Origin: Promethearchaeota archaeon
GTDB taxonomy: Archaea; Asgardarchaeota; Lokiarchaeia; Sigyniarchaeales; SOKP01
Reading direction: 5' to 3'
DNA: 64,000 bases
Assembly: GCA_030599585.1 (NCBI GenBank)
Contig: JAUVNS010000015.1
Span: forward strand, 41,310-105,309
Shown here: positions 27,880 through 64,000 of the stretch, piece by piece
How positions within the stretch are numbered: the stretch's first letter is position 1
Layout: each line of letters starts with the position of its first letter
Notes under the pieces: model-generated
What the model saw: only the letters and a program-made list of their open reading frames with translations
The model's database searches: none
Told to the model about the DNA's origin: nothing
Program-made: the position numbers and the translations under genes

Positions 27880-28024
27880 GGTTCAGGCTTAGAGTGAATC
27901 AGGTTTGTGTGAATGGCAGACAATGCGTTTGTTTAGTAGTTTAGTTTGTTTCGAAGTTAAGAAGTGAGATGGAGGTATTTTGTATTTGGTTGGGTATGGG
28001 TTGTGTTCCGGAGTTTTTACTCCA
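27880..28024 (+). repeat. 23S trailer / first copy of the array repeat (core 28003-28012)
   Basis: 27880-28012 is near-identical to 59559-59693; ends in GGGTTGTGTTCCGGAGTTTTTACTCCA. Confidence 0.9.
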
Positions 28025-28285
28025 TTTTTTATTTTCTTTCTTTTAGTTTTTATGTTCTTTGTAGCGTTTGTGTTTCGTTGTGTTCCTTTGTTATTTTTTC
28101 TATTTTCTTATCCTGAAGTCCGTTGGGGTTGTGTTCCGGAGTTTTCACTCCAAATTATTTTTTTTGTAATTTAACTCAATTTACACTCAGCTCGATTATT
28201 TTCCTAGAAATAAAACCCCTAGTGTATCTAAAATCTTTTTCTAAAAAGAAAAAGAGATTTAATAAAAAGGCAATTAGATGTAAAT

Positions 28286-28447
28286 ATGCCGAAATGTGGA
28301 TTTTGTAAGCGCGAAATTTCTATAAAAGATTTTGTAAAGGGAATGGGTAAGGGCTATAATGTTGAGAAAACAATGCATTGGAGAAAGAAGGTCTGTATGT
28401 TCAGCTGTCCCCACTGTGATACAATCTTAGGCTTCGGGTTTGATTAA
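28286..28447 (+). CDS. 53-aa zinc-finger microprotein (not in the ORF track)
   Basis: MPKCGFCKREISIKDF...MFSCPHCDTILGFGFD; two CxxC; fills exactly one repeat-to-repeat unit. Confidence 0.75.
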   Translation: MPKCGFCKREISIKDFVKGMGKGYNVEKTMHWRKKVCMFSCPHCDTILGFGFD

Positions 28448-28657
28448 GAAAATAAGGAGTGTGATAGAATGTTTGTATTGCGTAGGGTTGTGTTCCGGAG
28501 TTTTCAATTCCATAACTTTTTATTTATTTTTATTTAAAATATTATTTATTGTTTAATCAAAACCTAGCATATTTTAATACAAAAAAAATATAATATTGAT
28601 ATAGTCATTATTAGATATAACAACCGAAATTCATTTTAAAAAAGGTAAAATATCGAT

Positions 28658-28822
28658 ATGTTAGTCTGTAAAATCTTAAAAGGGCAAATGGATCGTGTAA
28701 AAGCAGAAAAAGACATCAACAGTTTTCTCTCATCAATGCCGTTAGAGTTAGAAGATTTTATCATTTCTCAAGTTGCACGGAATAGTAAAATCGTTACAAC
28801 AATAATTTACAAAGCGAAGTAA
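28658..28822 (+). CDS. 54-aa small protein (not in the ORF track)
   Basis: MLVCKILKGQMDRVKAEKDINSFL...VTTIIYKAK; AAGGT SD-like motif upstream. Confidence 0.6.
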   Translation: MLVCKILKGQMDRVKAEKDINSFLSSMPLELEDFIISQVARNSKIVTTIIYKAK

Positions 28823-28908
28823 AAACGGTCTAAAGAATATAAATTTTAAATATTTTTTATTTTTCGATTTCTTTAATATTTAAATCCAATAAATCTAAAT
28901 TTTATATA

Positions 28909-29553
28909 ATGACAAATATTTATGAAGGTTGGGCACGCTTTTATCAAGAACCGAGATCGACTTTTTCCATTAAAAAAACTGGTTTTATATTTATTTCAGA
29001 AAATTTGCTAACGTTCAAGTCTTATGAAAAAGGAGTATTCTATGAAATTCCCTTTTCCCAAATGAAAGATATTAGTATGGATAAGTATTGTATAAAGATT
29101 TTTACTGAAAATGGTAATGAATATAGCCTCTTTCCTTTAAAAAATAAAACAACTCAAGATAAGAAAAGAATTCCTTACATATTTAACATGCTAACTGAAT
29201 TGAGAAAAGGACAACCTATTGAAGAGCTTAGAATTATTGAAAAACTTAAGCAGATAATGAAAGTTTCATCAAAAATAAGCGTTAAAATGTTAAAGGAATT
29301 ATTTAAATTGGAAATAGGAAAAACGTACGAGATTGTTTATAACTGGGCAAGTAAATTTGGTTTTACAGTCGAAGGAGATTATTTAATTGTAAATGAATCA
29401 GCAGTTTTAGAATTTATTAAATTGCTAGATGACAGACCTGAAGTAGATACTAAAATCGAGGGAGGAAAAACAAACTGTTCTTATTGTGGAAATTCTATTG
29501 AGGTTAGTTTAAAGATTTGTCCATATTGTGGGAATGAAAATGTTAAGTTTTAA
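28909..29553 (+). CDS. Hypothetical protein, PH-like N-terminus, winged-helix-like middle, C-terminal zinc ribbon
   Basis: CSYCG...CPYCG; domain guesses for the rest are pattern-based. Confidence 0.65.
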   Translation: MTNIYEGWARFYQEPRSTFSIKKTGFIFISENLLTFKSYEKGVFYEIPFSQMKDISMDKYCIKIFTENGNEYSLFPLKNKTTQDKKRIPYIFNMLTELRKGQPIEELRIIEKLKQIMKVSSKISVKMLKELFKLEIGKTYEIVYNWASKFGFTVEGDYLIVNESAVLEFIKLLDDRPEVDTKIEGGKTNCSYCGNSIEVSLKICPYCGNENVKF

Positions 29554-29751
29554 ACTTATTAACTTTTTTATTTTCTTTCTTTTTATTTTTGTAGTATTTG
29601 TAGCGTTTGTGTTTTGTTGTGTTCCTTTGTAATTTTTTCTATTTTTTCTGTTATTTTCTAGTTTCTTTTAGGTTTAAACCTTAAATACTTACAAACATGT
29701 TATAATCTATTAAATCCAGCCTTCAAACAAATTATTTTATATAAGAAAATT

Positions 29752-31230
29752 ATGAAAACTTCAAAAATTACTTCTATATTCTTACCCTTATTCTTTTTCC
29801 AAATTATTATTGGTGTAAATTTATTTCCCCTTGTAAATAATGATTTGACAAATCTACCAGTTATAAGTGGCAACTGGGAATCTCCTGTTGAGTTAGGATC
29901 TTTTACGTACTCTGATAATGTCCGAAATACATTTATTTTAAATGATACTGCTTTTATTTTGGTTGATGTTTATGGAATGGTTATAGTCGATATTAGTAAT
30001 CCGTTGAACCCACAATATTTAGGAAGATATGCAGAATATTCCAAAAATGTTCAAGTTATAGATGATATTGCCTATCTTACAAGTGGTAATGGTTTTTTCA
30101 TTGTTAATGTCTCGGTTCCTAGTTCCCCTTCTTTACTGGGAGAAAATAACACTTTTGATTGTGATGGGTTATATGTTGACGGAGATCTTGCTTTTGTTGG
30201 TTGTCGATATTATGGAATGGTTATTTTCAATATATCCAATCCCACTATGCCTGACTTTGTAGGAGAATACGTAAATGGTTCAAATCAGGATTATGACGAT
30301 ATTTTTGTTGCAAATAATACTGCTTATATTGCTGACTACCAAGGGGGAAATCTTAAAATAATCAATGTAACGGATCCTTATAATCCTGAAATTCATGGAA
30401 TCTACGATTATGATACAGTTGAGGGTGGTCCAAATGATGTATTTGTGGTAGATGATATCTGTTATCTCTCTGATTACGATGGTGGATTAAAAATAATTAA
30501 TGTAAGCGATCCCGAGTCTGTAGTTACGTTAACAACATACAATTCTGGAGGTTGGGTATCAGGGGTGTTTGTTTCAGATAATATAGCTTATGTCTCAGAT
30601 TATCTAACAGGAATAAGAATTTTAAATGTATCCAGTCCTTCCAGTCCAGTCTTATTAGGATCATTTTATGATCCCAGTGAAAATGCTTATAGTATATTTT
30701 TTGCTAATTCAATTCTGTATGTTGGTTGGGGTATGGAAGGCTTGAAAATTATTGACCCGGGTTATGATTCTGATGAAGACGGATGGTCTGACCAAGTCGA
30801 GATCTATTTACATCAAACCGATCCAGACGATCCAAACAGTTTTCCAGACGTAATAGCTCCAGTTATTACGATTATTTCACCACAACCTTCTACTAGTTAT
30901 GGAATAGATGCTCCTGATTTTAATATATCTATCATTGAATCAGATTTAGATGCTACTTGGTATACAATACAAGGTGGTTTATTTGAATATCAATTTACTG
31001 GATTAAATGGCACGATAGATCAAGAAGGATGGGATGTGACTCCTGAGGGAGAGATTTCTATTACATTTTATGCTGAAGATGGAGCGGGAAATATAGGGAG
31101 TGAGAGCGTCGTTGTTATAAAAAGCATTCCTACTCAACCAGAAATCCCCGGATATAATATTTATCTCTTTCTGCTAGGAATTCTTTCAGTTGCAATAATA
31201 CTGCTTGTTAAAAAAATGAAAAAATTCTAG
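29752..31230 (+). CDS. Surface protein with LVIVD repeats and Loki-CTERM-like anchor
   Basis: Signal peptide; repeated GLKIINVSDP units; DSDEDGWSD Ca motif; IPGYN + TM + KKMKK tail. Confidence 0.85.
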   Translation: MKTSKITSIFLPLFFFQIIIGVNLFPLVNNDLTNLPVISGNWESPVELGSFTYSDNVRNTFILNDTAFILVDVYGMVIVDISNPLNPQYLGRYAEYSKNVQVIDDIAYLTSGNGFFIVNVSVPSSPSLLGENNTFDCDGLYVDGDLAFVGCRYYGMVIFNISNPTMPDFVGEYVNGSNQDYDDIFVANNTAYIADYQGGNLKIINVTDPYNPEIHGIYDYDTVEGGPNDVFVVDDICYLSDYDGGLKIINVSDPESVVTLTTYNSGGWVSGVFVSDNIAYVSDYLTGIRILNVSSPSSPVLLGSFYDPSENAYSIFFANSILYVGWGMEGLKIIDPGYDSDEDGWSDQVEIYLHQTDPDDPNSFPDVIAPVITIISPQPSTSYGIDAPDFNISIIESDLDATWYTIQGGLFEYQFTGLNGTIDQEGWDVTPEGEISITFYAEDGAGNIGSESVVVIKSIPTQPEIPGYNIYLFLLGILSVAIILLVKKMKKF

Positions 31231-31521
31231 GGATTAAACCAAATAAGCGATAAAAATGTTTTGATATGAGAGATGATAAGTAAGTAGGTTAAGGTTGTGT
31301 TCCGGAGTTTTTACTCCAACTTTTTTATTTTCTTTCTTTTTGTTTTTGTAGTATTTGTAGCGTTTGTGTTTTGATGTGTTCCTTACGTTAATTTTTTCAA
31401 TTTTCTTATCCTGAAGTGCGTTGGGGTTGTGTTCCGGAGTTTTCACTCCAAACTTTTTTATTTTAGATAAATTAAACAATTAATTCTCTTTTTATATCGC
31501 TTCATTTTGTGTCTATCATTC

Positions 31522-33702
31522 TCAATAGAATAATGTGATAAAAATTGGAGCAGTAAAGATAATTCCAGTAAGAACAGAAATGATTATTAATATTATACCA
31601 ATTTTATGAAGATCTTTTGTGGGATCAGATAAAATTTCTCTTCCGAAAAATCCAATTAATAATGTTAAAAATGTTAGAACAAATCTTAGAGTAGATAGAT
31701 CAAATGAATTCACAAAAATTAATGGATTTATAATTGAAATTATATATATTATACCAGAAGTAATCATCAATATTAACATAAAAAAGATTCCTATTATCCA
31801 ACACCAAATCCTACCCGCTATAGGAATCTCTAAGTCAATATCGAATTCTATGATTTTTTTTAATTTTTTCCTTCTTGGTATATTGAAAGATATGATATCA
31901 GAAGATAAATCTGTAGGTAATTTAGTATATAACCCTCTGAGGATATCCTTCATCTCTTTAGCAAATCTTATTCTATGAAATCTAGGAGCATACGCTAAAA
32001 AGTAATAAGAGCAATCCTCCCGTAAGTCTATCGTTAAAGGATAAACATTTTTTTTTTGGTTGAAAAAATTAACTATAGATAATTTATTATAAATGAATTC
32101 TCTATTTATTTCACTCATTAGTGATGAATAATAGATGTATTGAGTTCTAAAAAGTAAAAAAGGATTATTAAATAGAACTATCCATAATATTGCACTTATT
32201 AGGACTGGTGCTAGTAAGATTTCAAAAAATAATGAAGAAATGAGAAAAACTGCCATAATAACATTAAAAAAAAATCTCACTCCTCTAAATTTCTTAGATA
32301 ACGATGTTTTCCTATTTATCATTCTCGAATATTTCTTATTCTTTCGAATTGTTTTTTTAGTTATGATTTTCAAATTGAATTCTTCATTATTTATTGCACT
32401 ATCTAAATATATAGGGATGGATGTTTTATGGAAAAAACCTTCATAACTTGTTCCTAAAGGAAATACTTGGTTCCCATCTAAGAAAATTTCAATTGAGACT
32501 GGATTAAATGATTTATAATCTCGTATACATTTATCTAAATCTCTAAAAACAAATTTGTAAATTTCATTGTATAAGATTTCAGATAAGCTATCTAGAAATA
32601 GCTTCCTTTTTATATTATCTTCTGGTTCTTTATTCTCACTATTTGTTTTAATCAAGAAACTTGTTATTTTTTCTTCGAATTTTTCTTTTAATTTCCCGTG
32701 TTTCATCAATTTATTATGAGCTTTTGTAAATAGCATTAAAACTTGTGTAGTAAGGAGTGAAGTTACTGCTAAAATTATGAATGGAGATACAAACAATATT
32801 AGATAAATTATCCAAATAATTATATCCCCTACTATTAGATACCTTGATAAAAGAAAAAATGAAACCAAAAAGTAATAAGGAATTAAAATACCGTAAAGAA
32901 TCCATAACCATTTAAATGAAGTGTTATGATGAAGATAGACTTTTTTTTTTGAAAATGGATAACGTATTATATCTTCAAAATTCCCAGATTTCTCAATATG
33001 TTCTCTAATCTTTACTTTACTAATTTCTTCTTTAATCTCTTCTGAAATTTTAATTTTTTTTAACTTCGTTTCTCGTTCTTTATTATTTATCTCTTTTTCT
33101 ATGAATTCTTCAATATTTTTAAAATTCGAATCTGATGGATTTAATATTTTTTCAAAAATAAAATGCCATATAATTTTTTCAAATAAGGTTTCTGATTCAG
33201 TTTCTAATAATATAGCATTTAAATTTTTTATTGGGTGTTTAATTAAACCATGTTGTTGAACTATTTCTTGATATCTAGGTGTTTTTTCTATTTCTTGAAT
33301 CTCTATAGTTAGTTTTTCATGAATTTTTATTGTTTCACTAACATATTCCTTATCCTTTACTTTTGCTAATAATCTATCAATTTTATTTAACTTTTCTTTT
33401 ATATCTTCAAAATTTTCAATATATTTCTTAATTTCTTTATTTCTCTTAAAAAACGCTTTATTATCAAGATAATTTTGATATTCCTCAACTGTTTTCTCAG
33501 GGATCCTAAAATAAGTGAGAGGTAATTCTAGTTTATAGTTAGAGTCTTTTGATCTTTCACTTTCCTCAAATCTTATTAAATATGAAGTCTCTTCCTCCAC
33601 TTCATTTATATCATTAAATTTTAATATTTTTGATTCTCTCTTTATATGATACGGTATTAGTTTCCATTGTTCACTTCCAGAGGTATTATTTGAATCTTCC
33701 AT
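31522..33702 (-). CDS. Hypothetical multi-pass membrane protein with N-terminal coiled coil
   Basis: 726-aa ORF with about 7 hydrophobic segments. Confidence 0.7.
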   Translation of the reverse strand: MEDSNNTSGSEQWKLIPYHIKRESKILKFNDINEVEEETSYLIRFEESERSKDSNYKLELPLTYFRIPEKTVEEYQNYLDNKAFFKRNKEIKKYIENFEDIKEKLNKIDRLLAKVKDKEYVSETIKIHEKLTIEIQEIEKTPRYQEIVQQHGLIKHPIKNLNAILLETESETLFEKIIWHFIFEKILNPSDSNFKNIEEFIEKEINNKERETKLKKIKISEEIKEEISKVKIREHIEKSGNFEDIIRYPFSKKKVYLHHNTSFKWLWILYGILIPYYFLVSFFLLSRYLIVGDIIIWIIYLILFVSPFIILAVTSLLTTQVLMLFTKAHNKLMKHGKLKEKFEEKITSFLIKTNSENKEPEDNIKRKLFLDSLSEILYNEIYKFVFRDLDKCIRDYKSFNPVSIEIFLDGNQVFPLGTSYEGFFHKTSIPIYLDSAINNEEFNLKIITKKTIRKNKKYSRMINRKTSLSKKFRGVRFFFNVIMAVFLISSLFFEILLAPVLISAILWIVLFNNPFLLFRTQYIYYSSLMSEINREFIYNKLSIVNFFNQKKNVYPLTIDLREDCSYYFLAYAPRFHRIRFAKEMKDILRGLYTKLPTDLSSDIISFNIPRRKKLKKIIEFDIDLEIPIAGRIWCWIIGIFFMLILMITSGIIYIISIINPLIFVNSFDLSTLRFVLTFLTLLIGFFGREILSDPTKDLHKIGIILIIISVLTGIIFTAPIFITLFY

Positions 33703-34074
33703 AATCCATCCTTTTTAATATTAATGAATTGTTCATCTATTTTTGAAAATATATTAGACTTTTGACAAAATTGACTTTTTTAATATAATCCTTAATAATA
33801 TTTAAATGATCATGTATACTAACTTATACATTTAAAGAATAATGAAAGCATTTTTAAAAAACATTGTTAAAAATTATGGAAAGTCAAAAGAAATATGACG
33901 CGAAGCTTGGGTTGAAGGGAAACCTGAAAGTGGTTATGTATTTGACTTTTTTGATTCTGATTGCATAGTACATAGAGAAGGGTTTTTTTCATATTAACTT
34001 TTTATGCTATTAATTTATATCTTAAGATTTCTTCTGGAAATTAAGTCTTTTTGAAATTTTTTTGGGGATATCAA

Positions 34075-35121
34075 ATGAGCGAGGATGATTATATAGATAT
34101 TTATGATGAGAATGACCAAAATTGGAAAAAGTTGAAAAAAATTTATACTTTTGACGAGTTTGATCCAAATTTTTGGATAGGAACTGGATTGGAATTTGAT
34201 GATAGCTATACTACTCTTTATGGTAGCATACCTGAAACTATAATACCTGTAGCAACATGGGGAACTGACTTTTATGTTGAAGAAAATCATATTCTCTCCC
34301 CAGATGTTACTAACTTCATCGATTTAGTTAAAGATTTAAGTTCTAATAAAAATTTAATTGAAAGCTTTGAAAAAATAAATGAGGTTCAAGATGATATAAT
34401 AACTGGTAATTTAGCTAACGCTAAAATATTAGCCATACAATTATTAAAAGAATTCCAAAGAGAAAAATCCGATTTCGGTATAAAAAGAGCAAGAGAATTG
34501 ATTAAACTTACTGAATTCGATCTTTCAAATGTTGTTCAGAAGAAGAAGATTATTCACGAATCAATTTATAATAATAAAATATCCAGATGCTTATTACACA
34601 AAGAAATTGATGCTAAATGTGTAAAGTTGAACGATATTAAGGAGACTATAGAGACTCCTGAAATCTTTGGATTTATCATGTATCAATTTCTTGGAAAGAA
34701 GTTTAAATTTAAAAATTTATTCCATTTCATAAAAATTAGAAGATATAGAAAAGAACAAGAAAAATTGAAAGAGTTAATAACAGAAATTAATAATAATCGG
34801 TTAATAAATATTAAATACCCAAAAGATTCTACTAGTTTAGAAGTAAAAACTTGCGATTTTTGCAAAATCGCCCGCAGTTATGATTTCGGGATTCTATTAT
34901 TATCCCCACTTAATCCAAATGCTTTCTTAGAAGCCGGAATGTTTATGAGTTTGGGCAAAAGAGTTATTCTAATAAATAATGAAAAAGTTGTGAAATCAGC
35001 CCCATTCGATTTAACTCCATTTTTTTATATAAAATATCGTAATGTTAACGAATTGGAAGCAAATTGGAATAGGAAAATTCCGAACTTTATAGAAGATATG
35101 ATAAAACAATATATACTATAG
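34075..35121 (+). CDS. Protein with C-terminal nucleoside 2-deoxyribosyltransferase/TIR-like domain
   Basis: NPNAFLEAGMFMSLGKRVILI...APFDL resembles the NPNVxxElG...PFD motif of that superfamily. Confidence 0.6.
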   Translation: MSEDDYIDIYDENDQNWKKLKKIYTFDEFDPNFWIGTGLEFDDSYTTLYGSIPETIIPVATWGTDFYVEENHILSPDVTNFIDLVKDLSSNKNLIESFEKINEVQDDIITGNLANAKILAIQLLKEFQREKSDFGIKRARELIKLTEFDLSNVVQKKKIIHESIYNNKISRCLLHKEIDAKCVKLNDIKETIETPEIFGFIMYQFLGKKFKFKNLFHFIKIRRYRKEQEKLKELITEINNNRLINIKYPKDSTSLEVKTCDFCKIARSYDFGILLLSPLNPNAFLEAGMFMSLGKRVILINNEKVVKSAPFDLTPFFYIKYRNVNELEANWNRKIPNFIEDMIKQYIL

Positions 35122-35228
35122 ATTATCATTTCTTGGATTTTTAAATCTAGAATCTCTAAGTAAGATTTGGGGAGAATTATTTGATAGCTCCATTAAAATT
35201 GGGTTTATACCATTCAAAGTATTATTTA

Positions 35229-36296
35229 TTATACCTTTTCAAAAACCCATTTGTCTAATTGGTGATAAATTAGTTCAAGTAAATTTTGAGAACAATCTAG
35301 ACCATAATCCTCTTTAATTTGAAGGAAAACTTTAGTGATATGTTTGCAAAATCGCTTACTCCATTTTCTATCTGTTAAGAAATCAGTACAATCATGCTTT
35401 AATATATTATTTTCAAAATCTATTATAAGTTGATAATCTGTTTTGGTTCCTTCTATAAGACTATAAGCTTGCCTATTTTTATCAATGGATAAGTTTTTTA
35501 TAACGACTTTGTCTATTTTTTTTCTGTCCCGATGCAGGTCCAAATATGAAAAATATAATAGTAAGTCATCAAAATTGAATTCTGTAAAAACTGGCCAATT
35601 TTCATGTGGATAATGTCTTCCCGCAACTATGATATTGATTTCACCAGCATTTTTTTCCTTAAAAGCTCTTGCTAAATCCCATGTTGTTGATCCTGTAGTA
35701 AAAATATCGTCTAAAATTAAAACCTTATTCTTTTCCAAATTAGTAATGTCGACTCTATGGATACCTTTAATCTCATCGTATCTCTCTAAGAATTTTTTAT
35801 GTTTATGCTCTCCAATTTCCATTAATCTTACAACTTTATTTGATATATCTTGAATTTTAAAACCTGCTGTTTTAAACTTTTTAATTAAAGGAGCTAAAAT
35901 AAAATCGCATTGGTTCACTTCAGTAGTATTAAATTTTGGGACAATAGTTATATAATTTGTGTCTTCTATTAACTTAGGATATGTTTTGGTTAACTGGAAT
36001 AGACCATCAGCAATTAAATCGCCAGCATACTTTTTAAATGTCTTCTGCTTCCTAAATTTTAGAATATTGACGACTTCTGTTAAATTATTAATTGGTATTT
36101 TTTCATAATTATGATATATTCCAAGGGCTTTTACTTCATTAAAATACCAACCATCATCTTCAAATGGAGGATTCGCACAAGTATAACATAAATGTTGGTC
36201 TTCACTATAAGGGTTCATACATTTTTGACAATAAGGTTCATTGATAATCCTTACCGGTATTTTTCCTTTAAGATAAATAAAGTTAGTTTTTGTCAT
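35229..36296 (-). CDS. ComF-like phosphoribosyltransferase with N-terminal Zn ribbon and C-terminal SWIM-like finger
   Basis: CQKC..CYTC; VLILDDIFTTGST PRPP loop; HDCTDF...FCKH. Confidence 0.8.
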   Translation of the reverse strand: MTKTNFIYLKGKIPVRIINEPYCQKCMNPYSEDQHLCYTCANPPFEDDGWYFNEVKALGIYHNYEKIPINNLTEVVNILKFRKQKTFKKYAGDLIADGLFQLTKTYPKLIEDTNYITIVPKFNTTEVNQCDFILAPLIKKFKTAGFKIQDISNKVVRLMEIGEHKHKKFLERYDEIKGIHRVDITNLEKNKVLILDDIFTTGSTTWDLARAFKEKNAGEINIIVAGRHYPHENWPVFTEFNFDDLLLYFSYLDLHRDRKKIDKVVIKNLSIDKNRQAYSLIEGTKTDYQLIIDFENNILKHDCTDFLTDRKWSKRFCKHITKVFLQIKEDYGLDCSQNLLELIYHQLDKWVFEKV

Positions 36297-36317
36297 TCAA
36301 TACAACGAGAAGATTTG

Positions 36318-37328
36318 TCAGTATTTCGTCAAACTTGTCTGCTTAGATAGAATGTTACTTTTACCGAGATTTAATCTTTTCCTTTCTTCATATTCATTCA
36401 GTAGTACTTCTACCACAAAATCGACATCATCTACAGAAGTAATTTTCCCCCCTCCTTTTTCGTTAAGTATCCAATTAGGAATAAATGCTTGTTCAACCTC
36501 ATCATCGATGGGTTCAACTGCAAAAGCGGGCTTTCTTTGTTCTAATCCGTATTTAAATTGCCACCTTGTTCCGCTGTGTTCAGTCCCTTCAATAAAAATG
36601 TTTCCTAATCCTAACCCACTAGTAATGCGATTTCTAATTTGCAATGCTCTTTTTATAACATTTTCTAACGGAAATCTTTCTGATAAGATTGCTCCATTTT
36701 CTATTAACTTTTTTACTAAATATTGATTTTCTTTAGGGTAAAGATTTAATATTCCGGAAGCAATCACCCCTATCGCCCTACCGCCCTCATTTAATGCAGT
36801 TTCTATCGCAATAGTATCAATTCCTCTTGCCAATCCACTCACAATTGTGAATCCTTTTTCTACTAACCTTTTAGATATCAACTTTGTCATTTTTGTTCCA
36901 TATTTCGTTGGATTTCTTGTTCCTATTATAGCAACTGCTCTCTCATCTTTTGGTTTGATATCACCTTTGATAAATATCAGTTTAGGTGGTCTTTTTAGGG
37001 TTTTTAATAAAGTAGGATACACTTTATCAAAATAACTTAGACATTTAATGTTATTATCTTGACAAATTTGCAAATCTTCTTTTATTCTCTCAAACGTCTT
37101 TCCTCTGTTCTTATTGGCAAACTTACTAACTTTCTCATCTAAACCTCTAATCGGGACCTCATCAACAGATTTAAGATTTGTTAACAATTTCCTAAAATCA
37201 TTTTCTGTATAATTTACGACCTCACTAAATGAAACTCTATCTTTAATTATTTTAAGTGCTTGCAGAGACAAAGGAACTTCTCTGCTTAAAAAAATGTAAT
37301 CCACTAGATGAATTTTCTGCACCAACAC
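36318..37328 (-). CDS. dprA: DNA-processing protein DprA/Smf
   Basis: YPTLLK, VAIIGTR, IVSGLARGIDT, RNRITSGL. Confidence 0.92.
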   Translation of the reverse strand: MLVQKIHLVDYIFLSREVPLSLQALKIIKDRVSFSEVVNYTENDFRKLLTNLKSVDEVPIRGLDEKVSKFANKNRGKTFERIKEDLQICQDNNIKCLSYFDKVYPTLLKTLKRPPKLIFIKGDIKPKDERAVAIIGTRNPTKYGTKMTKLISKRLVEKGFTIVSGLARGIDTIAIETALNEGGRAIGVIASGILNLYPKENQYLVKKLIENGAILSERFPLENVIKRALQIRNRITSGLGLGNIFIEGTEHSGTRWQFKYGLEQRKPAFAVEPIDDEVEQAFIPNWILNEKGGGKITSVDDVDFVVEVLLNEYEERKRLNLGKSNILSKQTSLTKY

Positions 37329-37585
37329 ATGAACCTTAAGTACTATTACCTATAAATTTAACAACAGTAATAGGGATTAATAATTTTTGTGTTTTATTTT
37401 ATTCCGATTTTCTTCAATAAACAGTAGTCTTAAGATAAAAATAGAATATTTTAACTATATTAAAACTACAGATCACATTAATGAAATGACAAAATAATCA
37501 AATTTATTTGTTAGAGCGATTTTGGGATATTAAACGGGTTTGACATTCTAAGTTAATTTAATTTTTATTTTAAGGAATTTCGATT

Positions 37586-54776: not shown

Positions 54777-55023
54777 AAAGCAGTTAAAAACAAAACCATT
54801 TAATTCAAGTTGAGAAGTTGTGTTCCGGAGTTTTTACTCCAACTATTTTTTATTTTTTGAATTTTCACAGAAATCTACCAGTAAAAACTAGCGATTACTA
54901 CTAATTAATCACTGAAGATTTAAATAGGGGGTAAATTAATTTTTATACATCTCTGTCTCTTGATAACAGTAATAAATTAGCAAAAAACAAGACAAAAAGA
55001 GCTAAAAAAAGGAGGAAAAAAAA

Positions 55024-56031
55024 ATGGTAAAACAAGTAAAACCTTTAGAATACGGAGAAAAAGAACCACCTAAAATAAATAAAAATAATAAAATGTCGGT
55101 AGAATTTAAAGGAAAAGAATATACGATTAAAAAAAAGGGGGGACTTTTAACGCTTAATCTTTCCATGAAAAAGATCAAGAGTATTTCAGAGATAAAAGGA
55201 CTCGAAAGTCTAAACAAGTTACAAGTATTAAACCTTAGTAATAATTCCATCTTTGAGATCGAAGGACTCGAAAGTCTAAACGAGTTACAAGTATTAAAGC
55301 TTAGTTATAACGCTATTTTTGAGATCGAAGGACTTGAAACCCTAAAAAATCTAAGGGAATTACACCTTGATTCGAATCGTATTGTAAAAATTAAAGGGCT
55401 CGAAGCTCTTAAAGACCTAAAATTTTTGAACCTTGCTGCCAATTCAATTTCTGAGATTGGAGGGCTTGATACCTTGACTAATTTAGAAAAATTGTACCTC
55501 GAAAGTAATAACATAGAAATTATTAAAGGACTTGATACTCTAGAAAACTTGCGCACATTAAGACTAGAGGGGAACATGATTGCTAAAGTAGAGAGTTTTC
55601 AAAACAAAGTAAAATTATACTCCCTCCTTTTCAGTGGAAATCCATTATATGAACAGGTTAAAGAGATGTTTGGGACGTCAAATGCCCAAAATCTGATGGA
55701 ATTTAGCCAAATGTCTGATAGTGAGATATTTACTAAAGCACAAATAATCGGTGAAAAAAATAGAGAGCAGAGACTTGCCCAGGAAATTCAAGAGAGAAAA
55801 AGAATAATAATAATGGCTAACAATAAAAGTGTAGTATGGATTATTTTGGGACTTATTGGGGGGATTATGTTTAGCATCAGCGTTTCCTATTTATTAGGAA
55901 CCCTTGTGTATGCTTTTGGTTTTGGTTGGTTAGGGGCGTCTGTATCCATCGCCGACATTCTGCGTTATCTTATACCCACGCTTATTGGAGCGGTGTTGTG
56001 TCTCATAAGCTATTTTTATTTGAGAAGTTAG
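55024..56031 (+). CDS. Leucine-rich repeat protein (SDS22-like) with C-terminal TM segments
   Basis: 22-aa LxxLxLxxNxIxxIxGLxxL repeats; GGAGG SD. Confidence 0.9.
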   Translation: MVKQVKPLEYGEKEPPKINKNNKMSVEFKGKEYTIKKKGGLLTLNLSMKKIKSISEIKGLESLNKLQVLNLSNNSIFEIEGLESLNELQVLKLSYNAIFEIEGLETLKNLRELHLDSNRIVKIKGLEALKDLKFLNLAANSISEIGGLDTLTNLEKLYLESNNIEIIKGLDTLENLRTLRLEGNMIAKVESFQNKVKLYSLLFSGNPLYEQVKEMFGTSNAQNLMEFSQMSDSEIFTKAQIIGEKNREQRLAQEIQERKRIIIMANNKSVVWIILGLIGGIMFSISVSYLLGTLVYAFGFGWLGASVSIADILRYLIPTLIGAVLCLISYFYLRS

Positions 56032-56198
56032 TTTGTTTTGCGAGATTTCAGTTGAGAAGTTGTGTTCCTGAATTATACTTTTTTTACCGATTAATGTTAT
56101 CTGATATCGCTACAGATTAATGTTGTGATGTAGAAGATTTTTATATGTTACCCGGGCTTATGATACTTATCGACTGACAAACCATGGTTTAAGAGTCA

Positions 56199-56408
56199 AT
56201 GGTAAAAAAGATAGGAATGCTTATATTCGGGACAATCTTCACTGTTTTTGGTGTAATACTCATTATTTATTGTCTTACTGCGATGCCTTACGAACGGGGT
56301 TCCTACTTGGTTTTCTTCTTGGTTCCTTTATTTATGGGATTTTTGTTAATTTTGGTTGGCTTAGGTGCATTATTAGCGAGGCGTAAAGATATTTTAATGG
56401 CTCAATGA
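56199..56408 (+). CDS. Small 2-TM membrane protein (cassette)
   Basis: Between cores 56062 and 56455. Confidence 0.65.
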   Translation: MVKKIGMLIFGTIFTVFGVILIIYCLTAMPYERGSYLVFFLVPLFMGFLLILVGLGALLARRKDILMAQ

Positions 56409-56642
56409 GAGCAAGCGTGGTTTGTTTCGAGATTGAATGTTAGGGTTGGGGTGTGTGTTCCGGACTATTTTTATTTTTTATTTCAGCACTTTTAAATTTA
56501 TTTACCAAAGGTTAATTTTAATTGAAAGGCATATGAAATCCATAGAAAGTGAAACCTGCAATCAGTATATTTATATATTTCTTTATCTTTTTCCTATATT
56601 ATATCACGATAGATAAAAATCTCGGTAATTTATGAAAGCATA

Positions 56643-57110
56643 ATGAATACAAAAGCAAGAATAATATCAATAGTAGTTATTTCATTTTTTATAGGATTAA
56701 TTATAATAGCTTTTCTTATACCTCTATTTATGTATTCATTCATATTTCATTCGTATAAAAATTTCCGCCATCTTTTTATGAGCTATAACTTTTATATATT
56801 TTTAGACCTTTTTGTCTTAGTTATTATCTTATTTTTATATTTGTATTACCTAATAAGACCAATAAAAACTTTAAATGGAAAAAAAACCCTCACTATAATT
56901 GAGATGATTTTAGGAGGAATTTTAGTTATTTTCCCATTAATTGGAATTGGTGTTCTATCCTCTTCATTTTTATCGATATATTTAGAGGGTTTTTTTTTAT
57001 TTTATTTGGTAGGATTGTTATTTTACTGTTTTTTACTCATACCTGGTACAATTTTATTTATTCATGGATGGCACCTACGAAAAAACCTCCGAATTGAGGG
57101 CTCCCTCTGA
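56643..57110 (+). CDS. 4-TM membrane protein (cassette)
   Basis: Between cores 56455 and 57162. Confidence 0.65.
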   Translation: MNTKARIISIVVISFFIGLIIIAFLIPLFMYSFIFHSYKNFRHLFMSYNFYIFLDLFVLVIILFLYLYYLIRPIKTLNGKKTLTIIEMILGGILVIFPLIGIGVLSSSFLSIYLEGFFLFYLVGLLFYCFLLIPGTILFIHGWHLRKNLRIEGSL

Positions 57111-57181: not shown

Positions 57182-57604
57182 TTAGTTTTTTTTATAATTT
57201 TTCGTTCTGAACTTCTCTGCTTTTTGTAATAACTTTTTAGCATTATCAAAAGTTACCTTTTTAAGTGCTTCATGTAATGGCAACCAGACATAATCTTCAT
57301 GCTCATAACTAATTTTTACATCCTTAGTTTTGGACTTAATAAGATAACATCGTACATATTTATGAAATCTTTGACCTTTGAAAGTGAAATAATAGTTATA
57401 ATTCTCTCTATATCCTTTTATAACAATGGCGTCTATAATACTCGTTTCTTCCTCTAACTCCCTTAAAATTGTCTGTTCATCAGATTCATTTTCTTCTTTA
57501 TGACCCTTTACAAATTCCCAGTGACCTAATCCGTATTTAAGAAGTAGATATTCGTTTTTATGGTAAACAATTGCAGCGACTGAAAATTCCTCTTTTAAAC
57601 TCAT
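57182..57604 (-). CDS. Nudix hydrolase (Ap4A hydrolase-like)
   Basis: HWEFVKGH..ENES..QTILRELEEETS Nudix box; SYEH. Confidence 0.88.
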   Translation of the reverse strand: MSLKEEFSVAAIVYHKNEYLLLKYGLGHWEFVKGHKEENESDEQTILRELEEETSIIDAIVIKGYRENYNYYFTFKGQRFHKYVRCYLIKSKTKDVKISYEHEDYVWLPLHEALKKVTFDNAKKLLQKAEKFRTKNYKKN

Positions 57605-57872: not shown

Positions 57873-58652
57873 TTATATTTTCATCGCAACGGCTAAGATC
57901 CGCTTTGTATCGTCGATTGTAGGGAGGTATCTCTTTGCTTCCATGATGTATGCAAAAGCTCCGTCTCTACCCATATCTTTGATTAACTCTTTCTTTAATT
58001 CTAAAGTTTTTTGGTAAACTTTGCTCTGGCGTTTTTTCCAATCTGGAGTTTCACTATAACTTTTTATAATAAAACCTGTATCTTCAAGGTAAGAGCGATA
58101 ATCATTAATTATGTTCGAATTTTTATTTTCCCAAGTAGTAAATACGAAATAAGTTTTTGAGCGTAAAATTCTTGCTGTTTCTTTAATTACTGCAAGGGGA
58201 TCTGGGATAAATGAGATTACATCAATACTTATTGCTCCATCAAAGCTATTTTCAGAAAAATTTAGTGAATGCATATTTCCTACTTGAAATTTGGCTATAC
58301 CTTTAATTTTGAAATTCACTGAACGATGTTGAGCTTCTTTTATCGCATTTTCTGAAAGATCGATTCCTATATAATTTGCTCCCGTTTCACGTGCTATCCA
58401 CATTCCTGGCCCACCTCTGCCACATCCTAGATCAATAAAAGATTTCCCAGGGCTAATATTAAGGTTTTTAGCAATGGTTCTCAGGTCAGTCATTGTAACG
58501 AAGCTGTCTGGATTGAGTTCTTCAGGATAGTCATCTCCATATACTTCCCGGAAGATATCTCGATACGACTCGCTCCTTTCTTTTTTATAAATTTGTTCAA
58601 ATAGGATTTTTAGGTTGTCTATGACTTTCTCCTCATTCTTTTCATTCATCAA
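57873..58652 (-). CDS. Class I SAM-dependent methyltransferase
   Basis: IDLGCGRGG, GIDLS, SFDGAISID. Confidence 0.9.
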   Translation of the reverse strand: MMNEKNEEKVIDNLKILFEQIYKKERSESYRDIFREVYGDDYPEELNPDSFVTMTDLRTIAKNLNISPGKSFIDLGCGRGGPGMWIARETGANYIGIDLSENAIKEAQHRSVNFKIKGIAKFQVGNMHSLNFSENSFDGAISIDVISFIPDPLAVIKETARILRSKTYFVFTTWENKNSNIINDYRSYLEDTGFIIKSYSETPDWKKRQSKVYQKTLELKKELIKDMGRDGAFAYIMEAKRYLPTIDDTKRILAVAMKI

Positions 58653-58669
58653 ACAATTTACCTACGATA

Positions 58670-59428
58670 TTATGGTATAATCCTTTTATCAAATTCTGGT
58701 AGGTCATCTGGCGGCCATCCTCTGGGAGTTTTGTACTTTTTTACATATCTATGATCGCACATTGGAGCTCCGAATCCTATAGCTTGAGTACGAGAGAATC
58801 CAAATCCTAAAATATGTGCTTCTGAGAAGTCAGCTAAACAAAAGAAGGGAATATATTTTTCAGCATCTAATCTCTTAAAAACTTTATGAAACCCACATTC
58901 ATGAAAATTAAATCCCCACTCAAAAGTCTTCCCATCACCTTCAACATAATCTGCAACCCAATCGTCGGGATAGTTCCTTAATTTTGACGTCTCACATAAC
59001 CTTTTCGCATAATCAATATAAGCAGATTCAAATGGATATTGGGCAGGATCTTTTCCAATCTTTTCCAGACTATTTTTTCTGATAGTATTATGTAGATCTC
59101 TGAATTTATAATAAAATTCCCCTATCTCTCGATGTGTGTATCCTTCTTTTTCTAGGATTCGAAACATTGCGAGGCTAGACATACCACCAACAAGGAGACT
59201 GGTAAAAGAATTTTTTCCCCCGCCAATATAAGGTATTTCCAGAATTAATTTCTCATATTCTTCTTTCATTTGCTCGAACATTTCCTTGATTTTAGCCTCG
59301 TCATACTTTTTTTTAAGGATATCTAGTGCAATTTTAATGTGGTTAGAAAAGTTTTTCATCAACTTTGGTTTTCTCTTAATATAATAATCTTTTACAACTT
59401 TAACAGTCATAAGTAAATTTTTCACCAA
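58670..59428 (-). CDS. L-2-amino-thiazoline-4-carboxylic acid hydrolase family protein
   Basis: ECGF...FCLAD...RTQAIGFGAPMCDHRY cysteine pattern. Confidence 0.75.
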   Translation of the reverse strand: MVKNLLMTVKVVKDYYIKRKPKLMKNFSNHIKIALDILKKKYDEAKIKEMFEQMKEEYEKLILEIPYIGGGKNSFTSLLVGGMSSLAMFRILEKEGYTHREIGEFYYKFRDLHNTIRKNSLEKIGKDPAQYPFESAYIDYAKRLCETSKLRNYPDDWVADYVEGDGKTFEWGFNFHECGFHKVFKRLDAEKYIPFFCLADFSEAHILGFGFSRTQAIGFGAPMCDHRYVKKYKTPRGWPPDDLPEFDKRIIP

Positions 59429-59558
59429 ATTTAAGCTACTAAATGGATTAAGACTACCTCAAATATTGATTCTTTCGCTTTTAAAATTGTTTATTCTTGC
59501 TAAAAGAAGTGATCAAAAAATGGAAATCCATGCAATCAGTAATTCCGTTTGAACTCAA

Positions 59559-59693
59559 GGTTCAGGCTTAGAGTGAATTAGGTTTGTGTGAGTGGCAGAC
59601 AATATGCGATTGTTTAGTTAGTTTGTTTCGAAGTTAAGAAGTGAGATAGAGGTTTGTATTTTGTATTGTGTTGGGTATGGGTTGTGTTCCGGA
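59559..59693 (+). repeat. Orphan copy of the 23S 3' trailer ending in the repeat core
   Basis: Aligns along its length with 27880-28012. Confidence 0.92.
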
Positions 59694-59828
59694 TTATATT
59701 TTTTTTATAGTATTTTTCTATTTTAATAATTAGCTTAAATCACAAAATTTCATCCTGAAAGGTAAATTCAGAGTCTGATTTTCATGAAAATTCTACTATG
59801 AAATTGGAATTCTCTAAGGATTGAGATT

Positions 59829-60404
59829 CTAAGATTTTTTCAATATTTCAATAATTCGCTGTATTTGTTGATTTATAGTATTCAAAATTTTAATGATGCT
59901 TTCTTTACCATCTTCGGATAAATCACTTTTAGGGCTTCCTTTTACGATTTTAGCTTTAAGCGGTGGTATAGGCATTCTTTGTTGAATTTTCTTTATTTCT
60001 GATTTCAGAACCATTGCTTCAGGAGAAACAGAGCCCATTTTTTCACTATTTCTAGTATATCGCATGTCGTCTAAAACTTCTGTCACAGGCATTGATTTTA
60101 GTTCAAAAGCATCTAAGAATTCTTCAACTTCATCCCCTTGATCCACAGATACAATTTTAACACCACCTTTTACTTCTTCTCTGAGTTCTGTAGCAATTCG
60201 TGCACTTATGAATCTTTTTTTAACTGGAGATGCTGAGCCCTTCCAAATGAAAATTCTTCTTAAATCCCATCTTAATATAACAAGCACTTGTTTTGCGTGT
60301 AAAATAGATTGTAAAGTCTGAGGTGTAATATCTTCAACTTGTTTTCTTTCACCACTCTCCTCTAATTCAAAAACTAAAAAATCCTCTAATTCTCTAGCTG
60401 CCAT
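59829..60404 (-). CDS. Gelsolin-domain protein (single domain plus C-terminal extension)
   Basis: RIFIWKGSASP..KRF.SA..A.EL...VSVDQGDE.EEFL.AF. Confidence 0.75.
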   Translation of the reverse strand: MAARELEDFLVFELEESGERKQVEDITPQTLQSILHAKQVLVILRWDLRRIFIWKGSASPVKKRFISARIATELREEVKGGVKIVSVDQGDEVEEFLDAFELKSMPVTEVLDDMRYTRNSEKMGSVSPEAMVLKSEIKKIQQRMPIPPLKAKIVKGSPKSDLSEDGKESIIKILNTINQQIQRIIEILKKS

Positions 60405-60663
60405 TTTTATCTAACTAGTTTTTAAAAAAATTAGTCATTAACTATTTATTATAACAAATTTGTATAAAAATTTTAACTTAAATCTAATTGTATCATCTGT
60501 TCGTTGAAATTTTATAACAAATTATAAATTGATGAGATAATAAGTAAGTAGGTTGGGGTTGTGTTCCGGATTTTAATTTTTTGTTTTGTTTTGTCTGTAT
60601 TATTTTTACTATTGTATTTCTTCCATCCCAATCCATTTAAACGAACGTGGAGAATTATATTAT

Positions 60664-61461
60664 ATGTCTCATGCTAATGTTTGGACCGAGAACTTTTTTG
60701 GTACCCGAGGGGGTCATATCCGGTATTTTCGGACTGGTGGCGATAAACCTTCATTGCTCTTACTGCATGGTGCGATGAGTAATGGTTTGTGTTGGAGTCG
60801 AGTTGCAAAATCGTTAGAATTAGACTTTGACATTATCCTACCAGATGCCCGTGGCCATGGGAAATCGGTTTCTCATCAACAGGACTATTCTTTATTTGAA
60901 TTAGTTGAAGACACGGCAGAATTAATTACCCATCTACAAATTGCTCCCGTAATTGTAATGGGTCATTCAATGGGCGCACAAATGGCTACTGAACTGGGTG
61001 CTCGCTACCCTGCTTTAGTAAAAAAGCTCGTTTTAGAAGATCCCGGCTATTATTTTAAAAATCCTTCATTTTTCACGTTGCTTTCTTATAATTGGATTAT
61101 CCGCCGCAATAGGAGGTGGGATCTATCTCAAATTCGAAAATGTTGCGACAAACTAATCAAAGGGTGGCACGAGGAGGATAAACTTTCATGGGTGGTAGCT
61201 CAAAAGCAATTTGCCGAAAATGCTGGGAAATTTTCTAAATCTTTCGATCCAAAACGGGAATGGTATTCGATTTTTCCCAGGGTAAAGGTCCCCACTTTGC
61301 TTTTAGTTTCTGAAAATGGGATTATGACAAGATCAGAAGCATCCGAGTATGTTCTTGCGTTTGGCGCTGCGAGCTACGAATATATTGAAGCTGCGGGTCA
61401 TATTATCCATTTCGACAATTTCGAAGTATTTATGTCGACTGTCCGAGCATTTTTGGGATAA
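60664..61461 (+). CDS. Alpha/beta hydrolase
   Basis: LLLHG, DARGHG, GHSMG, AGHIIH; ATG at 60664. Confidence 0.9.
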   Translation: MSHANVWTENFFGTRGGHIRYFRTGGDKPSLLLLHGAMSNGLCWSRVAKSLELDFDIILPDARGHGKSVSHQQDYSLFELVEDTAELITHLQIAPVIVMGHSMGAQMATELGARYPALVKKLVLEDPGYYFKNPSFFTLLSYNWIIRRNRRWDLSQIRKCCDKLIKGWHEEDKLSWVVAQKQFAENAGKFSKSFDPKREWYSIFPRVKVPTLLLVSENGIMTRSEASEYVLAFGAASYEYIEAAGHIIHFDNFEVFMSTVRAFLG

Positions 61462-61646
61462 CGTTCTCAACTTAGTTTTTCGAGATTAAGAAGTGAGCTG
61501 GAGGTTTGTATTATGTATTGCGTAGGGTATGGGTTGTGTTCCGGAGTTTATCTTTAGTAATTTATTTTAAAAACGCTTTGAGTTTAAGTATTAATACTAA
61601 TGCGCCTTATATTTCTTTGAATAATTAATTTTTAACGTGTTTGTAA

Positions 61647-61958
61647 ATGGAAAAAAATAAATATGCGGATTTAGCTCTTATTTTGGCTCTAATAAGCTTG
61701 GTAAGTCCTATATTGGCGATTTTAACAAGTCAAGGAATAATTCCTAGAATACTTATTTTTGGTAGTTTAGCAGTAAGCGGTACTGGTTTAATGGGGTTAA
61801 TTCTGGGGATAATTGGATATAACGAGACAGACCACAAATGGAAATCTATTGCTGCGATAGTTATCTACGTAGTAGGAACAGTTGTGTATTTAATTTTAGC
61901 ATTTTCCGTAATGTATGATGTTATATGGGGTATGTATTCGGATTTACTACCCTATTAG
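61647..61958 (+). CDS. 3-TM membrane protein (cassette)
   Basis: Between cores 61536 and 62035. Confidence 0.65.
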   Translation: MEKNKYADLALILALISLVSPILAILTSQGIIPRILIFGSLAVSGTGLMGLILGIIGYNETDHKWKSIAAIVIYVVGTVVYLILAFSVMYDVIWGMYSDLLPY

Positions 61959-62304
61959 GGTATTAATGTAGTGGAAGTCTTGGATTTTGCAAGGATGACA
62001 CTGTGAGATGAGATGTATTGATTGCGTAGGGGTTGTGTTCCGGAGTTTAATTTTTTTATTTTATTTTTATTTTTCTTTAGCTTTGTTTTACCATTTCCAA
62101 CTTATTATCATTTTCTGACAAAAACGTACAAAATTTAAATTTTATAATTTTTTGTACAAGTATTTAAAGACTTACGAGTAAAAATTCTATTTTACAGTAG
62201 TTCCACCATTTTTACTAGTAAGTTTCGCTGAAAGGTTTATATACAATTTTGTCGATCTATAGTATAATCTTTGCACTTTTACGAATGAAAATTAGATAAA
62301 AGCC

Positions 62305-62637
62305 ATGTCAAATGCTATAGATCAGTCTAAAATTAAGACAAGAAGAGGTAAAATAGTAAATGGTTGTTTATGTTTTGGGATTTTATATGCTTTTCCAATG
62401 ATTTTGTTTTTGATTAGAGAACCCCAAACTGTAAATTTAAGCAGAAGAATTGGTGTAAGTATAGCTGGAATAGTTGGTATGCTATTGATTCTTGGTTCAA
62501 TTATTTTATTAGTTAAGACGAGGCGCGTATCCTACGGGTTGTGGTGTAATGAATGTAATAAGTTTGTAAATAGAAAATGGAACCGCTGTAGTATATGTAG
62601 AACTAAAAAGGTGTCATGGAAGCGTCTTCCGAGATAA
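62305..62637 (+). CDS. 2-TM membrane protein with C-terminal zinc ribbon (cassette)
   Basis: CNEC...CSIC; between cores 62035 and 62668. Confidence 0.7.
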   Translation: MSNAIDQSKIKTRRGKIVNGCLCFGILYAFPMILFLIREPQTVNLSRRIGVSIAGIVGMLLILGSIILLVKTRRVSYGLWCNECNKFVNRKWNRCSICRTKKVSWKRLPR

Positions 62638-62689
62638 ATTCTTGTTTCGAGCTTGAAGGGTGGGGGTGTGTTCCGGAGTTTTTACTCCA

Positions 62690-62798
62690 TTTTTTGTTTT
62701 ATTTCTTTGTTCTTTTTTACTTACCTTTTTCGCTAAATTTTCCGTCTTATTGAGCATATCCCAAAATTCAATTTAATGAATGTATATAAAAGAAAAAT
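62690..62798 (-). pseudogene. Promoter plus first ~19 codons of a paralogue of the giant PKD gene, cut off at the repeat
   Basis: MLNKTENLAKKVSKKEQR vs MPNKTENSAKKIRRREKR; 22-bp identical upstream segment (62777-62798 = 50856-50877). Confidence 0.75.
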
Positions 62799-62910
62799 GA
62801 CAAATAACAAGCTAATATGAATATAAAAGACTAAAACTTATATAATGGATTTACTCAATATTATAATAATTTATACAAATCTGGAAAAAATTTATCTCTT
62901 TTTTATATAA

Positions 62911-63321
62911 GTGAGAAAATTGTCAAAATTTGGTTTTTTTCTTAGTATGATTATGGGTTTTTGGTTTGCTGTTGTGTATATTATTTTATTTGTTATTGAG
63001 TTTCATAGGTTTGGAGATTCATACATAGATGCGTATGAGATAAAAATAGTAGTTAGCATAATAATCGGTTTAGTAGCGATAATTGGAGCCGGAGTTGGAT
63101 TTAAAAGAGTAGGTGTTGGAAGTATCATCTGTTTTGTTGTGGGATTATTCCTATTCATATTTGCCTGGGTATTATACGCTCCTTGGAACTCTAATTTTAT
63201 ATTTGCTCTATTGACTTTCTATGGTCTTGCTAGTGGTGCTCCCCCAGAATTACTTCTATTAATTGGTGGTATTATCTGTTTAATAGAGTGGCGAAAGGTA
63301 GATAAAGATATAAAAGCTTAG
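62911..63321 (+). CDS. 4-TM membrane protein
   Basis: Hydrophobic ORF, GTG start. Confidence 0.65.
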   Translation: MRKLSKFGFFLSMIMGFWFAVVYIILFVIEFHRFGDSYIDAYEIKIVVSIIIGLVAIIGAGVGFKRVGVGSIICFVVGLFLFIFAWVLYAPWNSNFIFALLTFYGLASGAPPELLLLIGGIICLIEWRKVDKDIKA

Positions 63322-63429
63322 ATGAATCACTAATACTTTTGCCAATTTAGTAAAGATAGTTTGCCCGTCTTCTTATTATTTTTACTCACTTCGCTTTTTT
63401 ATGCTTCACCTTAAAATATTTTCTCAACT

Positions 63430-63729
63430 TTATTGTTTCTTTCCAGCTTTTCTAAATTTTCGCATCTTGCTAATTGTATAAGAAAATATACCAATACATA
63501 TGCTACTGGCAAGAAAGTTAGAGATGGACAATAATAAAGTATAGGTATATGTTAGTTTATCGTCTGGATAAATGTTTGTTCTGGCATAAATTAAAACTGG
63601 AACTGCAAAGAATATTGCGAATGCGAAAAAGGAGGAAGCAAAACCACTAAGAACGGTTAAATAAATTGCGCGTTTTTTAGTTAAACTTAAACCTAACCAG
63701 CTTTTATTATCATTTTTGTTTTTTTGCAT
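63430..63729 (-). CDS. 2-TM membrane protein
   Basis: Hydrophobic ORF with GGGTGA SD. Confidence 0.65.
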   Translation of the reverse strand: MQKNKNDNKSWLGLSLTKKRAIYLTVLSGFASSFFAFAIFFAVPVLIYARTNIYPDDKLTYTYTLLLSISNFLASSICIGIFSYTISKMRKFRKAGKKQ

Positions 63730-63940
63730 ATCTTTAATTTCACCCTTGCGTGTTATTTTATTATTTCATTTTTTACTATTTAATTTTTTTGATACCGTTC
63801 TAAATTGATATAATAAACTGAGGTGGGAGTGTGTTCCGGAGTTTTTTGAATCATGATAAAGGTAATGACCATCTATTTTAAATAGGAACTTTGTGTATTA
63901 TAAGCTAGTCCAATACTAATAACTTAAGAAGATACACAAA

Positions 63941-64000
63941 ATGAGAGAAATTAGGTTTTCAAAACTTGGTATCCTAATAGCGATATTTGTGATAATAGCA
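63941..64000 (+). CDS. Start of a membrane/secreted protein (3' partial)
   Basis: MREIRFSKLGILIAIFVIIA following core 63831. Confidence 0.45.
   Translation, partial: MREIRFSKLGILIAIFVIIA

Follow-up and report, generated by a model that had tools for sequence, protein, structure and literature searches.

A cassette-like array of accessory genes behind the 23S rRNA gene of a Promethearchaeota archaeon and its relation to the 23S trailer

The window, a stretch of 64,000 nucleotides that forms the end of contig C3 in a Promethearchaeota genome assembly, carries to the right of its 23S rRNA gene an array of accessory genes that are separated by a repeated, co-oriented site. This site forms the far end of the 23S 3′ trailer and consists of the leader-pairing arm of the processing stem with a T-tract behind it, and the downstream repeats are, judging from their sequences, displaced, 5′-truncated copies of this trailer. 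The array is a real feature that combines an integron-like mode of working with the topology of the islands at tRNA gene ends and fails the defining tests of both; its parts are ordinary and the arrangement is unusual. The features of the window are listed below (BHB, bulge-helix-bulge).

24355..24495, + strand: 23S leader, 5′ strand of the processing stem, with the inverted core (24360-24374) and one BHB strand (24462-24479); identified by the duplex and covariation
24496..27863, + strand: 23S rRNA gene, the sole copy in the assembly and the left anchor of the island (Rfam RF02540, genome BLAST)
27864..28050, + strand: primary trailer, with BHB strand (27880-27897), stem arm up to the core (28000-28012), hairpin and T-tract
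28051..28170, + strand: second half of the double-site trailer (variant core near 28080, core 28128)
28170..31250, + strand: proximal cassettes (53 aa, 54 aa, 214 aa zinc-ribbon, 492 aa LVIVD-like) with site 28487 and variant site 29619; missing at the same position in locus L084
31255..31470, + strand: displaced copy of the double-site trailer (cores 31294 and 31426), 90% like 27999-28165
31522..51300, unstranded: accessory block without sites (726-aa gene, DprA-PRTase (ShosTA-like) pair, TPR protein, phospholipase-C-like protein, 2302-aa PKD protein); pieces in other contexts in L084, L173, L099 and L162
51320..51385, + strand: truncated trailer copy, core 51347
51695..51740, + strand: truncated trailer copy, core 51713, without hairpin
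51770..54100, - strand: cassette of a beta-helix/NosD + TIR protein; 98% identical stretch in L096, with different neighbours
54240..54335, + strand: double site (54243, 54296)
54492..57110, + strand: four single-gene cassettes (94 aa, 335 aa LRR, 69 aa, 155 aa), closing sites 54817, 56059, 56452 and 57159
57182..57604, - strand: NUDIX cassette, closing site 57735
57873..59428, - strand: two-gene cassette, methyltransferase and ATC-hydrolase family
59551..59715, + strand: nearly full-length trailer copy with BHB strand, core 59681
59829..63729, both strands: six cassette genes (191 aa, -; alpha/beta hydrolase, +; 103 aa, +; 110 aa, +; 124 aa, +; 99 aa, -) with sites 60558, 61533, 62032 and 62665
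63800..64000, + strand: site 63828 and the first part of a cassette gene extending onto contig C32 (exact 126-nt overlap)

The repeated site and its source

A 13-nt core matches the window at 18 positions with at most two mismatches (0.73 expected), all on the + strand, and a looser scan adds the sites at 54243 and 57735 as well as three variants (28080, 29619 and 31376). The initial annotation of this DNA, made from the letters alone, had counted about 20 co-oriented intergenic sites and no core among the housekeeping genes, and both statements hold: the 20 sites and three variants are all intergenic and located to the right of the 23S gene, and the 23.6-kb housekeeping part contains none, although the 23S leader harbors the core in an inverted copy (24360-24374). 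Of the two symmetries ascribed to the site, the 6-bp palindrome is present in 16 of the 20 copies, whereas the GGAGT hairpin is intact in 8 only. The short intervals of one or two genes from 51.3 kb onward represent accessory cassettes; the region between 31.5 and 51.3 kb is a single site-free stretch. A scan of the entire genome with a weight matrix trained exclusively on other metagenome loci produced 26 hits, 22 of them inside the island and all on the + strand (the four others are on C22, C23 (two) and C26), compared to 0 hits in the reversed genome. This concentration in a single island and on one strand, in place of an even, bidirectional spread, leads us to reject REP or MITE elements and a dispersed terminator. 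Site spacing ranges from 53 nt to 20 kb, with genes in between. The core is nearly invariant across 308 sites, the site score shows no significant decay with the distance from the 23S gene (rho -0.34, p 0.12), and the GC content of the island is not shifted (31.9 vs 31.3%).

The primary copy of the site belongs to what we take to be the archaeal pre-23S processing stem with its BHB motif. The trailer (27864-28012) and the leader (24355-24495) are predicted to form a duplex of about -120 kcal/mol; across four genomes such duplexes range from -92 to -120 kcal/mol, with covarying ends, and in G020, G016 and G008, where the core differs, the leader is changed to match. A canonical BHB, paired by hand, joins 24462-24479 with 27880-27897 (4-bp helix, 3-nt bulge on each side). 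The pairing, the BHB and the covariation jointly identify the primary site as the base of the pre-23S processing stem, after which the trailer continues into a small hairpin and a T-tract. Related cores are also found at the ends of the primary trailers of other species.

In contrast to an ordinary archaeal 23S processing stem, at least 20 downstream copies are present here that possess neither an rRNA gene nor a leader of their own. The repeat extends beyond the core, with a variable 5′ end: the window copy at 59551 is nearly full-length (59551-59693 is 87% like 27872-28012), that at 61478 spans about 70 nt, and the others 25-50 nt. In related genomes, some copies are cut at both ends and others begin up to 150 nt, and once 308 nt, inside the 23S gene, so that copy starts range from about -308 to just before the core. 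Several window copies are closer to the trailers of other species than to the window's own trailer. The sites follow the stop codons of + strand genes at a median distance of 76 nt and also lie upstream of - strand genes (median 163 nt); the T-tract of a copy is probably a terminator both for the cargo gene and for rRNA read-through. The trailer of the 16S gene, 49 kb upstream, has no repeated copies in this genome, and homology to an rRNA gene is therefore insufficient in itself to account for the choice of 23S.

Extent of the island and turnover of its cassettes

Contigs C3 and C32 share an exact 126-nt overlap inside a cassette gene, and C32 contains additional sites followed by conserved backbone from about 13 kb, which gives an island of approximately 50 kb; no tRNA genes were found in the window. 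The site is carried by 104 metagenome stretches, always co-oriented when present more than once, and the related records belong to Promethearchaeota/Promethearchaeia. Among 48 stretches behind 23S genes in 47 genomes, 18 contain co-oriented downstream copies of their own trailer and none contains inverted ones, with the caveat that the 23S anchor of a few stretches is located at the end of a contig and could itself be a copy. With the BLAST threshold that was applied, no self-copies were seen in 29 of the 47 genomes or in G032, which has two 23S copies. Several genera of this family are represented among the copy-bearing genomes, together with G038, a single-contig genome from a sister family, and with G316 and G364, which are both outside the order. 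Within the genus, the island ranges from none to about 50 kb.

The initial annotation described an rRNA-anchored array of cassettes, and comparison of the gene content downstream of 23S supports this description and a polar layout. When a gene shared between loci is followed by a site, its right neighbor is retained in 3 of 76 comparisons and replaced in the other 73; without an intervening site, it is retained in 146 of 255 comparisons and replaced in 109 (the neighbor pairs are not independent, and the loci were gathered by the motif). Thus, gene order is not conserved across the sites, and the breaks concentrate there. Family maps place window genes elsewhere in new orders, and a 990-nt contig from another study joins position 50878 directly to 56449 (other joints in the same search are mostly short-sided and may represent repeat cross-matches, so that only this contig was used). 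Some relatives are empty: in G017, G019, G012, G007 and G022, the 23S gene is followed directly by the backbone, and the inserts of G016 and G008 are short. The 23S trailer of L084 continues into the flank and the gene that are found in the window from 31430 onward, so that the window contains about 3.3 kb of extra DNA at its rRNA-proximal end, the one case of new genes between the 23S gene and a displaced trailer copy. Gene order is better conserved in the distal than in the proximal part of the array, a pattern that would fit accretion from the 23S side. Given that the gradient of site scores is not significant, the evidence for polarity consists of the L084 case together with the conserved order of the distal part.

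The copy start of a given cassette is often the same at different loci (family F100, -63; F31, -29; F52, -61/-62; F5, +8 to +14), and in L099 and L144 genes are severed mid-way and fused to a trailer copy. The cargo is oriented predominantly but not exclusively along the rRNA gene (97 + and 47 - genes), and the genes of the island mostly lack close paralogs in this genome. In the window it is mixed, comprising LRR, NUDIX, methyltransferase, hydrolase, beta-helix + TIR, PKD and TPR proteins and the ShosTA-like pair, and in related arrays it includes Ras-family GTPases, TPR, TIR, Schlafen and surface proteins.

Comparison with known systems

As stated in the initial annotation, the site fits neither an integron attC nor a CRISPR repeat. 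The RYYYAAC motif occurs within 170 nt upstream of only 3 of the 20 sites, at unrelated distances, and the folding energy of the DNA bottom strand (0 to -9 kcal/mol) is near that of shuffled sequences at nearly all sites; CRISPR arrays consist of equal repeats with spacers of 30-45 nt, which is incompatible with the spacing observed here. The best score against the IntI profile TIGR02249 is 48 bits, compared to a cut-off of 265; because CALINs may lack IntI, this absence is not decisive on its own. The array resembles integrons and CALINs, including the archaeal ones (PMC9668308), in that co-oriented repeats follow small unrelated genes that are reshuffled and enter near one end. It differs from them in the lack of attC structure and IntI, in the presence of promoter-bearing cassettes in both orientations, and in the derivation of the repeat from an rRNA trailer; the archaeal integron paper makes no mention of rRNA (PMC9668308).

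With the tandem or additive islands at the 3′ ends of tRNA and tmRNA genes (PMC9897764, PMC4033161), the array shares an RNA gene that remains intact at one border, inserts that alternate with displaced 3′ fragments in a common orientation, and a strain-variable number of cassettes. However, the target is the end of 23S together with its transcribed trailer, the fragments vary widely in length, and the inserts comprise one or two genes without an integrase or transposase. The nearest rRNA-anchored case is HVR2 of SAR11, a variable island between the genes for 23S and 5S rRNA, which have been proposed as homologous-recombination anchors; HVR2 is a replacement island that is swapped whole between two conserved flanks (PMC2217521, PMC4033161), whereas the array is additive, subdivided by trailer copies and sometimes empty, and its single cassettes appear in new orders. 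Homology-facilitated illegitimate recombination, which combines a homologous anchor with a joint at short microhomology, would yield junctions of the observed kind; it is described as a low-frequency event of transformable bacteria, not as a standing cassette platform (PMC6382021), and it is not known from Asgard archaea. A published account of 23S-trailer cassette arrays was not found in a literature search that covered few subscription papers, and the consulted passages of the paper on circular Asgard genomes (PMC8813620) contain no description of the array.

Origin of the array and its implications

The comparison of loci points to an additive island that probably enters at the 3′ end of the single 23S gene and is probably driven by general recombination. 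A cassette would be born when DNA from a relative, made up of the 23S end, the trailer and the genes that follow there, undergoes homologous recombination within 23S and is joined at its far end to the recipient's 23S end or trailer at short microhomology; alternatively, a circle of such a fragment might integrate via one crossover. In either case, the old trailer of the recipient would be displaced downstream, from the junction onward. Because each cassette has a trailer piece on its right, exchange between any two copies would then insert, delete or reorder cassettes without a dedicated enzyme, and long copies would pop out while short ones persist. Several points count against this scheme. 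Many short copies share only 15-25 nt, which is short for RadA-type exchange, natural transformation is not known from these archaea, the left alignment ends of shared cassettes accumulate at the core, and the 16S trailer is not repeated.

A doubtful but considerably more novel possibility is a dedicated, undescribed Asgard gene-capture mechanism that is aimed at the 23S trailer and makes mobile cassettes, in effect an integron equivalent built from an rRNA processing signal; its agent could be an unrecognized recombinase or breaks via the pre-rRNA stem, R-loops or rRNA-intron endonucleases. The initial annotation proposed a site-specific platform with a dedicated recombinase, located outside the window and either acting in trans or encoded further to the right. 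No integrase, resolvase or reverse transcriptase linked to the array was found, in agreement with its absence from the window, but the right end of the array on C32 also holds none, and a recombinase profile found no match in 1.7 Mb of array and downstream DNA. The genome encodes two tyrosine recombinases and two reverse transcriptases, all far from the array, and no resolvase; one XerA-sized tyrosine recombinase is encoded off the array in array-bearing and empty genomes alike.

Supply of such a recombinase in trans, by a virus, a plasmid or host XerA, with action at the core and later erosion or gene conversion of the 5′ arms, is unlikely. The near-invariance of the core and the resemblance to the attR fragments of tRNA genes (PMC9897764) speak for it, but leader pairing already accounts for core conservation. 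Where cassettes are shared between loci, the alignments tend to stop near the sites, at several points between -70 and +30 around the core. Left ends are most frequent at the core itself (33 of them within -10 to 0), as would also follow from a site-specific enzyme, whereas the right ends spread from -70 to +30, and the type of pre-core arm differs in 35 of 66 same-gene pairs (rRNA ORF F4 removed), each type being present at other sites. Since crossover strictly at the core would leave each arm attached to its left-hand gene, several exchange points are favored; the spread and the arm switches point against a fixed crossover, with erosion as a possible alternative cause. Copies cut at both ends, the small size of the cargo (0.3-3 kb), the absence of mobility genes among the 25 commonest Pfam families of 140 cargo proteins (a rare transposase could escape) and the lack of a match in IMG/VR contigs (a weak test with one exact 21-nt pattern) likewise argue against it. 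Given a site that is a processing-stem arm plus T-tract, with variable starts, switching arms and no linked recombinase, the proposal of a dedicated site-specific platform finds no support.

Quite improbable is a route through RNA or DNA breaks, that is, reverse-transcribed read-through or trailer RNA, or breaks near the 23S end that are caused by R-loops on its G-rich trailer or by intron-encoded homing endonucleases in 23S. The 5′ truncation with a common 3′ end at the T-tract is retrocopy-like, two reverse transcriptases are available, the 23S gene contains two small variable inserts, and 23S but not 16S is affected. Nevertheless, copy starts do not cluster at the predicted BHB cut, the cassettes contain promoters, one gene in three is antisense, the reverse transcriptases are unlinked, and the copies remain behind 23S instead of being dispersed. 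It is the short shared length and the choice of 23S only, for which general recombination does not account, that keep the trans recombinase and this route under consideration.

A passive origin, with local duplication and deletion spreading the rRNA terminator and the copies marking turnover without causing it, is very unlikely: it would explain the proximity of sites to + strand stop codons and the hairpin followed by a U-tract, but not the sites upstream of - strand genes, the 12 of 20 sites that keep the core without an intact hairpin, the absence of duplicated cargo inside the island or the concentration of breakpoints at sites. Misassembly is unlikely as well, and joining of strain mixtures at the repeat, conceivable for a metagenome-assembled genome with 8.9% contamination, is hardly credible, considering that separately assembled contigs of the probable source run (not independent data) span as many as five sites without a single mismatch, most copies do not reach the length of a read, and the single-contig genome G038 has the same layout.

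With this array, the gain of accessory genes can be mapped to a concrete site in Asgard archaea, in which gene flow is a central question for the origin of eukaryotes. Trailer copies account for genome breaks behind 23S genes and for stray 23S 3′ fragments, and, as a record of donors and of the order of events, they make the mechanism testable in sister genomes and with long reads. The array suggests that the end of an rRNA gene can serve as a self-renewing cassette platform without an integrase, and integron finders would miss such arrays.

Inserts in the 23S rRNA gene

Comparison with relatives shows that the 23S rRNA gene (window 24496-27863, + strand) carries a 31-nt insert at 26343-26373 that is missing from the genomes G020, G008, G256 and G261; this insert, which folds into a small stem, is probably a mini-intron. 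A second insert, of about 30 nt (27273-27303), differs in sequence in every relative and is missing from G261 and G038. Upstream of the 23S leader, a 22-nt unit is repeated five times in tandem (23634-23743).

Trailer and 23S pieces outside the island

In the window's own genome assembly, copies of the 23S 3' trailer also occur outside the cassette island, at C22:126982, C23:83846, C23:85950 and C26:55841, the first of these following a 77% paralogue of window 63430-63729. These off-island sites are either relocated cassettes or bin contamination. The same assembly contains an orphan 78-nt piece of a 23S 3' end (C26:126264-126341, equivalent to L068:8265-8340) that is 83% similar to the assembly's own 23S gene, lacks the trailer and is distant from the island. 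At the metagenome locus L144 (reverse strand, near 680 from the oriented start), manual reading places the start of a short-chain-dehydrogenase-like gene against 23S position -308; either the copy there is long and young, or the contig is chimeric.

Cargo genes and shared promoter-like segments

The island includes the following features (window coordinates):

35229-37328, gene pair encoding DprA and a PRTase-domain protein
43932-50840, PKD/TSP3-repeat surface protein (2302 aa)
51770-54100, beta-helix/NosD region fused to a TIR domain, in an open frame that spans 776 aa and exceeds the listed ORF in length
55189-55452, internal 66-nt repeats of an LRR gene
54321-54427 and 54844-54950, first pair of promoter-like segments
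57745-57850 and 59698-59803, second pair

The DprA/PRTase pair is a candidate cargo anti-phage system judging from its PADLOC matches, ShosA (E 7e-59) and, weakly, ShosT. Homologues of the surface protein in relatives are alignable in patches only. Each pair of promoter-like segments consists of 100 nt common to two cassettes and located after the T-tract. Sequences resembling these segments are abundant in other sequencing runs, and this sharing suggests additional exchange points beyond the core, the conserved site near the trailer end.
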